Assembly (NCBI GenBank): GCA_050123375.1
Contig: JASFHF010000001.1
Coordinates: forward strand, 34,475 to 98,474
DNA length: 64,000 nt
From: Gammaproteobacteria bacterium
Lineage (GTDB): Bacteria; Pseudomonadota; Gammaproteobacteria; UBA12402
Direction: 5' to 3'
Part shown: positions 45,364-53,134 of the stretch, in pieces
How positions within the stretch are numbered: the first letter of the stretch is position 1
Layout of the letters: each line of letters opens with the position of its first letter
Notes under the pieces: model-generated
The model's input: the letters and a program-made list of their open reading frames with translations, nothing else
Databases searched by the model: none
What the model was told of the DNA's origin: nothing
Program-made: the position numbers and the translations under genes

Positions 45364-46383
45364 ATGAAATTAGCAGATTTTTATTATGAGCTACCAAACG
45401 AACTAATTGCCCGATATCCAACCAAACAACGCTCGGCAAGCCGTTTATTGTGCTTAAATCGTGATACCGGAGAAATCCAACATCAACATTTTGGCGATTT
45501 GATCAATTTTCTTACACCAAAAGATTTGCTGGTATTTAACAATAGCCGGGTAATTCCAGCCCGGCTATATGGCACAAAAGATACCGGCGGACAAATTGAA
45601 CTCTTAATAGAACGTATTTTGGATAAATTCCTCTGTTTAGCACACATTAAAGCCAGCCGTGCGCCAAAACCTGGATCTACGCTGAACCTGGAAAATGCGA
45701 TTGCAGTAAAAGTTCTAAGCCGACATGATGATTTATTTAAGCTTGAATTTCCCGCTACTCATCCAGTAATGAAAACTTTAAACTCTTTTGGTCATATTCC
45801 CCTGCCTCCTTATATTGATCGTGCTGCGGAAGCTATAGATCAAGAGCGTTATCAAACTGTATACGCCAAACATAATGGTTCTGTTGCAGCGCCAACAGCA
45901 GGATTGCATTTTGATGAAGAATTATTAAAAAAAATAGAAAATAAAGATATTAAATCAGCTTTCGTAACTTTGCATGTTGGCGCTGGAACTTTTCAGCCGG
46001 TAAAAACTAATGATATTAAACAGCATAAAATGCACTCCGAATTAATTCAAGTTACAGAAGAAGTTTGCCAACAAATACAACAGACTAAGCAATCCGGCGG
46101 ACGTATCATCGCAGTTGGCACTACCAGTGTGCGCTGTTTAGAAACCGCAACTCAAAATGAAACCACAAAACCTTTTTTTGGCGAAACTGATATTTTTATT
46201 TATCCTGGATATGAATTTAAATGCGCAGATGCAATGATTACTAATTTTCATTTGCCTGAATCGACATTACTAATGCTGGTCTCCGCATTCGCCGGCCGTG
46301 AAAATATCATGCGCGCCTATCACGAAGCCATAGCCAAAAAATATAGATTTTTTAGCTATGGCGATGGGATGTTTATTTTTTAA
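45364..46383 (+). CDS. queA: S-adenosylmethionine:tRNA ribosyltransferase-isomerase
   Basis: 'MKLADFYYELPNELIARYPTKQRSASRLL' with full-length QueA similarity. Confidence 0.9.
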   Translation: MKLADFYYELPNELIARYPTKQRSASRLLCLNRDTGEIQHQHFGDLINFLTPKDLLVFNNSRVIPARLYGTKDTGGQIELLIERILDKFLCLAHIKASRAPKPGSTLNLENAIAVKVLSRHDDLFKLEFPATHPVMKTLNSFGHIPLPPYIDRAAEAIDQERYQTVYAKHNGSVAAPTAGLHFDEELLKKIENKDIKSAFVTLHVGAGTFQPVKTNDIKQHKMHSELIQVTEEVCQQIQQTKQSGGRIIAVGTTSVRCLETATQNETTKPFFGETDIFIYPGYEFKCADAMITNFHLPESTLLMLVSAFAGRENIMRAYHEAIAKKYRFFSYGDGMFIF

Positions 46384-52300: not shown

Positions 52301-53134
52301 TTCAAAATGCTCTTCTGAGCATTCATCCTTTGTCATACCATTAACAAAGGTTTTTGACCGCTCAAAAACAATTTTGTATTTTTTACCTTCTTGAGATTTG
52401 TCTTTTTCGGAATTGGAAAATGACTTACAAACAATTATTTTTTGTGTAGTAAAATACGATTTGTATAGCTTAAGGTTAAGTCTTTTTTTAAATCGCAAAC
52501 ACCCTAATGCTGTTTTATTTTTTTCTCGCTTTGCCTGTTCTATTTGTTCTTGCAGCTTATCAATTTCTTTACGAAATTTTTTGTCTATTTCATGCATCAT
52601 TAAAGTTACAGCATAGTCTTCATTCTGGGGCAAACAATCTATAATTCGTTTTTCTCTTATATTTTTTTCAACTAACTTTCTATCTAGTTTATATTCTGGC
52701 TCATTTACTTCTTCTACTGTTATTGGGCTCGATTTGTCTAATATATTCTTGTTAAACAGTAATTTTTCAAAAAATCTGCCAACAATCTTAAATAGATTAG
52801 TCTTTTCTCTAAGATAATAAGCTTTTCTTATATTATTACGCCCTTTCTGGACACTTGTAATTGACGTATTTAATTTGCCCTTTAATTCTTGAATAAGTCT
52901 AAAGTTTTTGTTTAACATATACTTCTGATCTTGCATAATATCAAGCATTTCATTCATGTCTGTATCTATTTCAATAAGATCTTTTTGTCGCTCTTTTTCT
53001 AAAATCCGATTAAGTTGAATTTTATTCATTAGTTTATAAAGATCAGAAACTTGATGCTGCTTTTTTTTGGATGTGCTTTTTTTTGGATGTGTCTTTTTTG
53101 GACGTGCTTTTTTAGATGTGTCTTTTCCTAACAT
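46373..53134 (-). CDS. giant orphan protein, 2253 aa, Lys/Glu/Asn-rich, predicted largely alpha-helical/coiled-coil; candidate secreted effector (inference)
   Basis: An uninterrupted 6.76-kb ORF in very AT-rich DNA is improbable by chance. No catalytic or fold signature was recognisable. The termini are basic, Lys-rich and low-complexity. Confidence 0.6.
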   Translation of the reverse strand: MLGKDTSKKARPKKTHPKKSTSKKKQHQVSDLYKLMNKIQLNRILEKERQKDLIEIDTDMNEMLDIMQDQKYMLNKNFRLIQELKGKLNTSITSVQKGRNNIRKAYYLREKTNLFKIVGRFFEKLLFNKNILDKSSPITVEEVNEPEYKLDRKLVEKNIREKRIIDCLPQNEDYAVTLMMHEIDKKFRKEIDKLQEQIEQAKREKNKTALGCLRFKKRLNLKLYKSYFTTQKIIVCKSFSNSEKDKSQEGKKYKIVFERSKTFVNGMTKDECSEEHFENYGYKNNFEDTPYLCKFSRVWLLGRVEQVKLASKQVRVGRERSLVNRYKRDLAQVLFYKTDSKYSCGSHEDCMKSYDYIRKNGGFKVHKVSYTEQRKRELLQCIKGEEKRISIKNYKKKKGISKWFIRTFKNKDYRYYRYLQRMKQQIIGHVYNRKLIQGNERIRELRLKLAEEISKLPQNKYDFLDAMNICDLKDKIKWTPIQIAKFLTRDYSVLEKTLGKVEKMLQGAKDFKQKSNEQTANTTTITNDNPKANPLGSLEAIKEVLDNLKKLNKSEEQNSYIKIVEHKHNRKFVDKFIKKIEKGILVLRDKATLNDKLIERCKKSTIKKIFENLAKLGDGENVNLNMIKCQIRDARYYNSHIRRNYKNAMKLKILADICDGKIQTNIQTKKGESLYDNSGLRTKFTKHFTKDEKRELPSIIKKVVKYYLGKSKIDESEKVKTYKQLAQINEDKTSELQEKIKKILNLKSKQLNITEGLGAYIEKMREELIKSGLIGKLKESEKPRQNQNNEPKKCGYIELLTKIFDLWKQHKSTAVLDGVFNNCMQQPLNPAHGVLIGFLYSLRLVSEKLLKNWVNKRCEELSKNSVWTRFDTILLSGKLSGKQIFPQREKLIFSDIWKKFSKYSGNEKMPESLESMLFGILSDLYNKFEKSKNEKKKPEINEYFMCIYQVYKIWVTGTSQEYFINIDKLLLVLDETKKHYKEFDKKISKTIQELKKQAYSHIVDYLQKVGDGIANDDSEAVKTRLCDVLIYLSERNEESKQKMISFFDDEEVDEQVKDNIVKAILNKGLDLYIKEEKYSDLLKLFDILSKLKGKSFFNEDVYKNKAKEVKEQLLSKLRKLIMPKEGYNYKHFRDNKENIKLYYGLLNELDVINGKNQTTTKVLTNYLKNIGLSFGVKCYSDQVKYFECYLDICAISKELNLQLELPFSEEILTLKKDELDDKEFQDKNKISRECLKEKVQQPLLTELKIELIRKFHQPIAKVNEIRNYKDLIGFIGKLNDKNSSFYNNLKDNYECFQQVYEQYNSQNNPEYCGPFGEQSLDEHKQCCKDRFEISTISSIRDYKDLANALKKKLDECKHETEMQDTKLQHMYSWLKFSLRLSDKEKNVDEFNLNRKDNIYLKLRYIKLLSTRERVSKDDLDTILEIADGVGYYLKGKNENLLKQFFNGVININKKYKQNFEYLANCELSKSREFSKELNESLHSMIGILQNYNNPNNFFYNDSDFGKKINEFKEKFGNQQAFVIVFSTDELEKLNDELKVVELPDFKNSKFHKKLKELLDNASPKNLFSGKCKPFDCKFFNEIDEIMQEYKKNYVVEQHVIQELDSFLKEPQKYSCSKIDVNLSHLTKPSDKLIEKIKDVIQEIAQISNYENPQIAPDAYSNIRKLIIQIDKVKLISPGIKEEFDDAFNGIVAKYSEILKTDSVKIIVNKEEYQPLTAKMRFMSDSPKRYQEFMKVKVDNDGTTFKQVIEETLKSVTAKLNENIGMKVRKQLMEKARWCQRALLGCKSEEDRIGQNKEYDKLSNEIKEVFKEHVLKKNVKELDVAKLINNMKKVYFGGESRHLFLLYRCYWSINRQLNTEIVEKKKESIKELGIDPVCKIVEKLKKPESKPISYQHPMYLPKCKDLSNDTERKIRNLRDKIEKFHKSVDVYSCIKNLDSIISSIESLLQDEGLIEVEGNKKLLQKLKLQQESFRIQKNIFEEYVKKQKASLSKLNNVRNQVFCTDDDVEIAERFMDLLLFRECFESKSYFDFMVLSEQETKKAKSLEKDKSKNAMEKFEKIFEKYMSGFREEARSMLCAIRTSTKRSEFYEKIEKRINDLRKNKYTKLQNGKSLFVTLVMDLYAILNEKTETNVSTKGLQVTEQEEHRDNPKFFKPKVEITPIEDPVHEVNNNFNKIKFAGSGAFSVFSQIQNHKRQKKEEKNKIKLKNNKKVIQPKKKRKFNFPNIFELFAKKGKPSSKKNENKVLVKPGFKK

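Follow-up and report, generated by a model that had tools for sequence, protein, structure and literature searches.

A Fixed Slot beside queA Holds Unrelated Giant Genes in Two Coexisting Gammaproteobacterial Populations

Introduction

Replacement-type flexible genomic islands, giant-gene regions among them, occupy the same position between conserved borders, hold unrelated content of similar presumed function, and bear no mobile-element scars. Named cases include the giant gene region (GGR) of Polynucleobacter and the giant-protein clusters of Alteromonas, and the exchange of such islands has been attributed to homologous recombination in the borders and to phage-driven selection (PMC4033161, PMC5644125). 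A precedent of another sort, at the level of the protein, is SidH of Legionella pneumophila, a 253-kDa protein made up of novel helical bundles, with a secretion signal at its C-terminus and without functionally characterised relatives (PMC10624908). Here, a giant orphan gene from an uncultured gammaproteobacterium is compared with these systems. The gene lies at 46373..53134, on the minus strand, of a 64,000-nucleotide stretch of DNA (contig JASFHF010000001.1, positions 34,475 to 98,474; “the window” refers to this whole stretch), and its coding sequence (CDS) begins with ATG and specifies a protein of 2,253 amino acids, 266 kDa, and an isoelectric point (pI) of 9.4. It occupies a fixed slot that holds an unrelated giant gene in a coexisting sister population.

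Two Unrelated Giants in One Slot

The only close relative found, by a scan with QueA, is an uncultured gammaproteobacterium represented by contig JASFHH010000051.1 (here L001), whose QueA is 91% identical to that of the window. Synteny around the slot is preserved in L001. On the left is queA (45364..46383, plus strand), with 90% nucleotide and 91% amino acid identity and a synonymous divergence (dS) of 0.38; on the right are fxsA (53350..53799, minus strand) and htpG (53946..55898, minus strand), and this flank (53350..55898) is about 90–92% identical at the nucleotide level, with dS of 0.33–0.52. Nonsynonymous divergence in the flanks, where dS spans the same 0.33–0.52, is 0.03–0.04. Between them, L001 carries an open reading frame (ORF) of 2,086 codons (called as a 2,078-residue protein) on the same strand as the window giant and with the same 11-bp overlap with queA, and database searches find this protein to be an orphan too. 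The first-pass annotation of the window, made from the sequence alone, had described its giant as inserted between queA and htpG; the location stands, and simple insertion does not, as the sister slot is filled by another giant gene.

The change from conserved to unrelated sequence is abrupt at both ends. Identity remains at 87–94% per 150 bp up to the two junctions and is then gone. The queA alignment to L001 runs to 46384, one base past the queA stop, and from 46385 to approximately 53201 neither blastn nor tblastx aligns anything with L001. This variable segment (46385..53201, minus strand), which consists of the 5' leader and the CDS minus its last three codons, has no alignable L001 counterpart. 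Alignment resumes in a conserved, promoter-like region of 106 bp (53202..53307, minus strand) that is 79% identical to L001 7948..8052. Within it is a −10-like hexamer, TATACT, at 53216..53211, and homology ceases about 10 nt past this hexamer, such that the variable unit coincides with the transcribed region, from that point to the queA stop.

Comparison of the two proteins likewise provides no trace of kinship. BLASTP returns E > 1 and phmmer --max E = 1, Smith-Waterman alignment is negative, and the global alignment score (z = 2.7 against shuffles) is equalled or exceeded by a reversed-sequence control. Neither the termini nor the apparent common motifs (YQHPMY versus YHNPMY; LFxKKxKP) reach significance, smoothed profiles of hydropathy, charge, aromatic residues, and proline/glycine content are uncorrelated, and the similarity of the leaders downstream of the −10-like box is not significant. 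Drift cannot explain this state of the slot, because dS of 0.33–0.52 and 79% noncoding identity leave neutral sequence approximately 65–75% identical.

What the two giants share is of a general kind. They are similar in length (2,253 and 2,078 residues), lysine content (15.8 and 14.7%), pI (9.4 and 9.3), GC content (0.30 and 0.29), and strength of helix periodicity (z = 7.4 and 7.5), and both are without a Sec signal or membrane segment. The basicity of the C-terminal tail falls in the top few percent of each protein (+20 over 60 residues and +8 over 35 residues, respectively), and the N-termini are inconsistent between the two. Both unrelated frames enter the conserved flank and finish on the same TAA, ending in F-K-K-stop; in the window this is the 11-bp tail-to-tail overlap with queA at 46373..46383. 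The common stop is modest evidence of ancestry only, because a frame that enters the queA end in antisense meets a stop within 12 nt in two cases out of three.

Both versions of the slot are present in sequencing run SRR11697952, where the contigs are broken at the gene ends and both finish with one queA 31-mer, and therefore the two populations coexist. A wider metagenome scan with queA provided no further locus closer than 62% identity, and exact look-ups of the window FxsA and QueA returned the same contigs only. Among 91 more distant queA loci, none has an ORF of at least 900 amino acids beside queA, so that the slot is specific to this small clade.

L001 also differs from the window next to the slot. 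Between the promoter region of its giant and fxsA lies an insert (8148-9586), with none such in the window, that carries a gene for a 418-residue AAA_14/DUF4143 ATPase (8238..9494, minus strand) matching PDC-S01, a candidate defence system of PADLOC (E = 4e-64). On either side of the insert is a copy of an imperfect direct repeat of about 55 bp (8169..8220 and 9517..9568) that represents a duplicated 3' end of fxsA. Farther into this flank, which is otherwise 90% identical, the fxsA–htpG spacer measures 146 bp in the window (53800-53945) and 10 bp in L001 (9975-9984).

An Intact Gene and an Orphan Product

The giant ORF is a genuine and intact protein-coding gene, as had been argued from its length. 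With a stop expected in about 9% of codons at the local base composition, the probability of 2,253 stop-free codons is approximately 1e-95. A Logan contig from run SRR11697952 (L094) matches window positions 53448..46337 base for base, across both junctions; the same 2,253-residue protein is recorded by JGI and by this independent Logan assembly, and the gene order of the locus is repeated on a 105-kb JGI contig. Three assemblies are thus concordant across both junctions. The relative, in which frameshifts would have pointed to a decaying pseudogene, holds an intact, unrelated giant ORF instead.

Annotations of the start codon conflict, with NCBI giving 2,218 residues from M36 (ATG at 53029) and JGI and Logan giving 2,253 from M1 (53134). 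The longer form is supported because a Shine-Dalgarno-like AGGGGG (53140..53145, minus strand) lies 5 nt upstream of the ATG at 53134, and no such site precedes the ATG of M36. The choice matters in that the basic N-terminal tail is translated only if the ATG at 53134 is the start.

The proposal that the protein is an orphan has held up in every type of search. A word-indexed search of the whole protein against 5.8 billion proteins found its own record as the sole match, and an exhaustive phmmer search with residues 545-1744 (residues 1-544 and 1745-2253 lying outside that search) against 1.84 billion cluster representatives returned self only. Pfam gave no match up to E ≤ 10, nor did NCBIfam or PHROGs give any; PADLOC matched neither giant at E ≤ 0.1; a sequence search of the PDB, SidH included, was negative, as were tblastn against plasmids and phages and pattern scans of viral contigs and of a species-representative genome collection. 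Two AlphaFold2 models, computed from single sequences for the two halves of the protein, had no Foldseek match in the PDB at E ≤ 0.001 (best E = 0.19, template modelling score < 0.15), and the top matches, generic helical repeats, are treated as noise. No adhesin or structural maintenance of chromosomes (SMC) family surfaced in these searches. The window itself contains no silent cassettes or paralogues.

The absence of a recognisable enzymatic motif, noted in the first-pass annotation, is borne out by the family searches and by direct inspection: the protein has no Walker A ([AG]x4GK[ST]), HExxH, CxxC, LPxTG, RGD, or GGxGxD motif. Self-BLAST reveals no internal repeats, no signal peptide is found, and the hydrophobicity needed for a membrane segment is not reached in any window of 19 residues. 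The lysine-, glutamate-, and asparagine-rich character reported at first sight is reflected in measured contents of 15.8% lysine, 9.0% glutamate, and 7.1% asparagine, together with 9.9% leucine and 7.3% isoleucine; the grand average of hydropathy is −0.79, and there are 39 cysteines.

Of the suggestion that the protein is predominantly helical or coiled-coil, the first part is supported and the second is not. The hydrophobic moment peaks at 100 degrees (z = 7.4 against shuffles), with no peak at 160–180 degrees, which indicates amphipathic helices, and DSSP assignments on the AlphaFold2 models are all helix, with coil in approximately the last 125 residues. The mean predicted local distance difference test scores (pLDDT) of these models are 38 and 35. 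Most of the predicted helices are 10–30 residues long, and a crude heptad scan found no 28-residue window with a strong heptad register.

The termini are basic, as had also been proposed, with a net charge of +10 over the first 35 residues and +20 over the last 60 (coding region 46376..46555, minus strand). The latter, predicted to be non-helical, form the most basic 60-residue window of the protein and include PKKKRK at residues 2215-2220 (nt 46475..46492), which matches exactly the core of the nuclear localisation signal of SV40 large T. This hexapeptide, with a chance expectation of about 1e-3 from overall composition, was spotted post hoc and is without a counterpart in the L001 giant. Read by eye, the C-terminal sequence shows no EExxE-type block.

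The gene had further been placed in an AT-rich island, a description that fits its GC content (0.30 compared with 0.367 for the window) but not its codon usage. Third-position GC (GC3) is 0.275, equal to that of the host, as represented by rpoB, rpoC, queA, and htpG (0.25–0.32), and a foreign codon dialect is rejected on this ground. The AT excess therefore sits in codon positions 1 and 2, i.e. in the amino acid composition. As this composition also correlates with the expectation from base composition (r = 0.84), the apparent island is largely a lysine/asparagine/isoleucine effect. Other measures of the gene are atypical. Its dinucleotide signature has a delta* of 153, where host segments of matching length give 46 ± 18 (maximum 83), and its relative synonymous codon usage correlates with that of host genes at 0.68, compared with 0.82–0.94 for most long host genes. 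The codon usages of the two giants correlate with each other at r = 0.88, and with the host at only 0.68 and 0.84, respectively.

The Upstream Region and Its Repeats

The conserved region at 53202..53307, with its −10-like hexamer, would serve as a promoter. A generic scan for sigma-70 promoters and terminators, however, gave no enrichment above shuffle expectation in the upstream region.

Repeats of different kinds are found at the 5' ends of the two versions. In L001, a perfect (CAAGGAAA)x14 array, its unit read on the gene strand, occupies 7840-7953, downstream of the conserved −10-like TATACT and ahead of the start codon of the giant. The array consists of an 8-nt unit in 14.2 copies with 100% matches (Tandem Repeats Finder score 228), and an AAGGA Shine-Dalgarno-like core is present in each CAAGGAAA unit. 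The array resembles either a contingency repeat of the slipped-strand type or a leader for ribosome loading. A spurious 51-residue gene has been called across it by JGI, and the Logan contig collapses it. In the window, the repeats are within the gene: imperfect 16-nt tandem repeats in approximately four copies (53053..53126, minus strand) make up the first 75 nt of the CDS and specify the basic N-terminal tail. Two A8 runs, the only ones in the 6.8-kb gene, lie in these repeats, upstream of M36, and slippage at them could toggle the basic tail or the whole protein. Because the repeats are imperfect and code for a lysine-rich tail, they may be nothing other than lysine-codon composition.

The Surrounding Genome

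The window is otherwise ordinary housekeeping DNA with a full peptidoglycan machinery. Beyond htpG lies mrdA, and beyond queA lie tuf and three tRNA genes. Functions in translation, transcription, and metabolism are represented by ndk, rlmN, ileS, ribF, a TatD-family DNase gene, the rpoBC and ribosomal-protein operon, tuf, and purA; those of the envelope and division by nucleotide-sugar genes, lspA, murJ, lolCD-like genes, mrdA, rodA, mltB, and rlpA; and those of stress, transport, uptake, and restriction by degP, a resistance-nodulation-division (RND) pump, comEC, a major facilitator superfamily transporter, and a TdeIII-type restriction enzyme. An Rfam scan identified tRNAs and the signal recognition particle RNA only.

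The source community, JGI sample 3300042731, contains relatives whose RpoB proteins are 95, 87, 80, and 78% identical to that of the window (P0005-P0008), which implies the presence of several related species. The contigs of the closer of these relatives stop at tuf, short of the slot. The closest named relatives by RpoB, at 72–74%, are the groundwater Gammaproteobacteria GWF2_41_13 and RIFCSPHIGHO2_12_FULL, and Thiohalophilus.

Several smaller features were observed elsewhere in the window. The TdeIII-type enzyme is a type II restriction endonuclease (361-1140, plus strand; Pfam E = 1e-56) encoded next to ndk and rlmN, and its partner methyltransferase would fall beyond the window edge. At 7515-7777 (minus strand), in a region without an ORF of at least 120 residues, two adjoining small ORFs of 40 and 47 residues encode near-identical hydrophobic peptides with the pattern MINIIAPYIGL.IVIV...LWHLADKGD.HKSG.HK; a ComEA-like helix-hairpin-helix protein (8010..8357, minus strand) adjoins them. 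Between lspA and ileS, an ORF of 265 residues (9345-10142, minus strand) has no Pfam match and represents a second, small orphan.

A Replaceable Locus and Its Possible Function

Because the sister slot holds a different giant behind the same promoter region, the locus is best regarded as replaceable rather than as a one-off island. The whole transcribed unit would be swapped by homologous recombination in the conserved flanks, and alternative versions would be maintained by diversifying or frequency-dependent selection. That the unit is exchanged through its flanks and retained by diversifying selection is very probable. The versions could be ancient alleles of a single gene, or else unrelated genes that come from a shared functional and compositional pool; with only two versions known, a pool of alleles is itself conjectured rather than observed. 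The product might be a large protein that binds or scaffolds rather than catalyses and that acts in encounters with an antagonist or partner organism. It would most likely exit the cell independently of Sec, and its basic, disordered C-terminal tail is the candidate export signal. Such an antagonist-facing protein, exported without Sec or injected, is put forward tentatively, and falls somewhat short of being probable. As a whole, with slot and function combined, the explanation is about evenly poised between right and wrong, and it is the best available.

Several observations weigh against it. To the small number of versions must be added that neither the metagenome scan, the exact-protein look-ups, nor two scans of genome collections turned up a further close relative. 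The flanks of the window and L001, at about 90% identity, are separated by species-level divergence, compared with an average nucleotide identity (ANI) above 96% for published replacement islands. The rise in mostly synonymous substitutions that published work associates with recent replacement does not appear towards either junction, identity being flat along the flanks, in a weak comparison that has no genome-wide baseline. The giants of replacement islands are known as repeat-rich surface proteins, which the window giant is not. No secretion-system, chaperone, or export-partner gene is found within the window. The AlphaFold2 models, at pLDDT of 35–38, are unusable for the fold and carry no information about it, and nucleic acid or anionic lipid would be equally plausible ligands of the basic tail.

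A more far-reaching version of the same idea, in which the slot is an old balanced polymorphism and a bacterial analogue of idiomorphs, is doubtful on present evidence. A fixed promoter and a stop codon in the antisense frame of queA would then delimit one transcription unit, filled by mutually unrecognisable, basic, all-helical giants of approximately 2,100–2,250 residues. These would constitute an undescribed class of non-enzymatic, non-Sec-exported giants acting as effectors or self/non-self determinants, their diversity held by frequency-dependent selection, and many more versions would exist in this uncultured lineage.

The consequences reach beyond this locus. Giant genes are among the costliest for a bacterium, and two intact versions that are mutually unrecognisable in neighbouring populations argue for strong ongoing selection. 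If the replaceable-locus explanation is correct, it extends the concept of the replacement island or giant gene region to basic, all-helical, non-repetitive proteins without Sec signals, and it provides a natural experiment in which promoter and flanks are the same and the cargo differs. The locus also marks strain-level diversity in an uncultured lineage.

Alternative Explanations

One alternative, the first-pass reading taken strictly, is that the source bacterium is intracellular and injects the giant into its eukaryotic host cell as a type IV (or type III) effector comparable to SidH. The idea is possible because both unrelated giants have a basic C-tail and no Sec signal. The window giant is a large, all-helical orphan without a Sec signal or membrane segment, and SidH is likewise large (253 kDa), all-helical, and devoid of known relatives, with its secretion signal at the extreme C-terminus (PMC10624908). 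The last 60 residues of the window giant are its most basic, and they include the PKKKRK core. Positively charged C-termini are used by substrates of VirB/D4-type systems. A distant relative (queA 58% identical) has been reported to encode a SidJ homologue (bioRxiv 10.1101/738567), which provides a weak lead. Against these points, neither a secretion-system gene nor a eukaryote-like domain occurs in the 64 kb, the lineage is not of the Legionellales on present evidence (named RpoB relatives at 72–74%), and no sequence match to SidH, any solved structure, Pfam, or NCBIfam was obtained. Lysine-rich motifs are to be expected in a protein with 16% lysine, and the N-termini differ between the versions, which argues against a type III signal. 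An effector role is thus a doubtful one; a translocated giant would supply the first sign that this lineage is host-associated.

The insert beside the L001 giant bears on another possibility, that the giants are intracellular anti-phage or anti-plasmid defence genes in a defence hot spot, subject to the turnover seen with other defence cargo. There, a PDC-S01-like gene adjoins the promoter of the giant, flanked by the duplicated fxsA 3' end. Close relatives from one community differ in what the slot holds, the gene has an atypical dinucleotide signature, and the L001 leader contains a simple-sequence repeat. Repeats of that kind occur at phase-variable restriction systems. However, one neighbour gene in one genome is thin evidence of a hot spot, and neither giant has a match in PADLOC, Pfam, or NCBIfam or any NTPase, nuclease, or other effector motif, whereas known defence proteins of such size have recognisable enzymatic domains. 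A defence function is accordingly considered unlikely.

The general resemblance of the two proteins raises the question of whether they could be a single ancestral cytoplasmic scaffold of bulk properties, associated for example with the nucleoid or RNA, that has diverged in place past recognition. Length, composition, pI, helical periodicity, promoter, and stop codon are common to both versions, the amino acid composition tracks base composition (r = 0.84), and the basic tails could bind nucleic acid. Yet dS of 0.33–0.52 and noncoding identity of 79% predict alignable sequence, of which there is none in 6.8 kb, and no residual similarity rises above the reversed-sequence control. As housekeeping scaffolds are normally conserved between genomes so close, this origin seems distinctly unlikely.

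A cell-surface role, as a giant adhesin, coat protein, or phage-receptor decoy, would be the usual cargo of giant-gene islands, and both the size and the replacement-island behaviour of the locus (PMC4033161, PMC5644125) fit it, as does the contingency-type repeat in the L001 leader. The protein itself does not. A signal peptide, a membrane anchor, LPxTG and GGxGxD motifs, internal repeats, and strand-type periodicity are all lacking; the pI of 9.4 contrasts with the acidic values typical of such adhesins; and the protein contains 39 cysteines. Nor are type I secretion genes adjacent, as the only HlyD-family gene in the window (24935..26041) belongs with an AcrB RND pump at a distance of 20 kb. 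Location on the surface is therefore improbable.

Finally, an assembly chimera or a decaying or spurious ORF, which the lack of a homologue anywhere and a composition near the base-composition prediction might suggest, is effectively refuted by three assemblies that agree over both junctions, a probability near 1e-95 of such a stretch without stops, a second and independent 6.2-kb open frame in the same slot, strong helix periodicity in both giants, and the Shine-Dalgarno site.

Comparison with Known Systems

Among proteins of comparable size or build, the long coiled-coil proteins of the SMC type share with the window giant a large, helical, and charged character. The giant, however, is without Walker A or B motifs and long heptad registers, and its predicted helices are mostly 10–30 residues long. 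An SMC-like ATPase is rejected because [AG]x4GK[ST] is absent and the crude scan found no strong heptad register.

Adhesins of the repeats-in-toxin (RTX) and Bap kinds, which are exported by type I secretion, resemble it in size and in a tendency to lie in variable regions, but differ from it in pI, the window giant being basic, and in features that it lacks: GGxGxD motifs, tandem repeats, strand periodicity, and adjacent genes for ATP-binding cassette and membrane fusion proteins. Such an adhesin is rejected on the lack of calcium-binding GGxGxD repeats and of tandem Ig-like or cadherin-like repeats, and on the neighbours of the gene, as queA, fxsA, htpG, and mrdA are not export genes of the ATP-binding cassette, membrane fusion, or TolC type.

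A possible similarity to phase-variable contingency loci lies in the (CAAGGAAA)x14 array of the L001 leader and the A8 runs in the first 75 nt of the window gene. It is limited in the window, where the repeats are imperfect and encode a lysine-rich tail.

SidH, which together with the SdhA family represents the very large, all-helical Dot/Icm effectors, is similar in size (253 versus 266 kDa), in helical character, and in having neither motifs nor a Sec signal, and its functionally important end is the extreme C-terminus, whereas sequence similarity, a Dot/Icm context, and evidence of host association are all absent from the window giant. The resemblance to SidH, drawn by analogy, is one of kind and not of family.

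Replacement islands provide the closest comparison. The slot has their fixed position, conserved flanks, unrelated content, abrupt borders, lack of mobile-element hallmarks, and giant cargo, and its variants co-occur in one community. It departs from them in carrying one gene where they carry a cluster, and in that the product is basic, all-helical, non-repetitive, and without an export signal, in contrast to the repeat-rich, exposed giants of the islands. The pair compared here is also about 90% identical rather than above 96%, comprises two versions, and shows no rise in substitutions at the borders. The slot is thus a locus of a kind already known, the replacement island, with an atypical product that is all-helical, basic, and non-repetitive.

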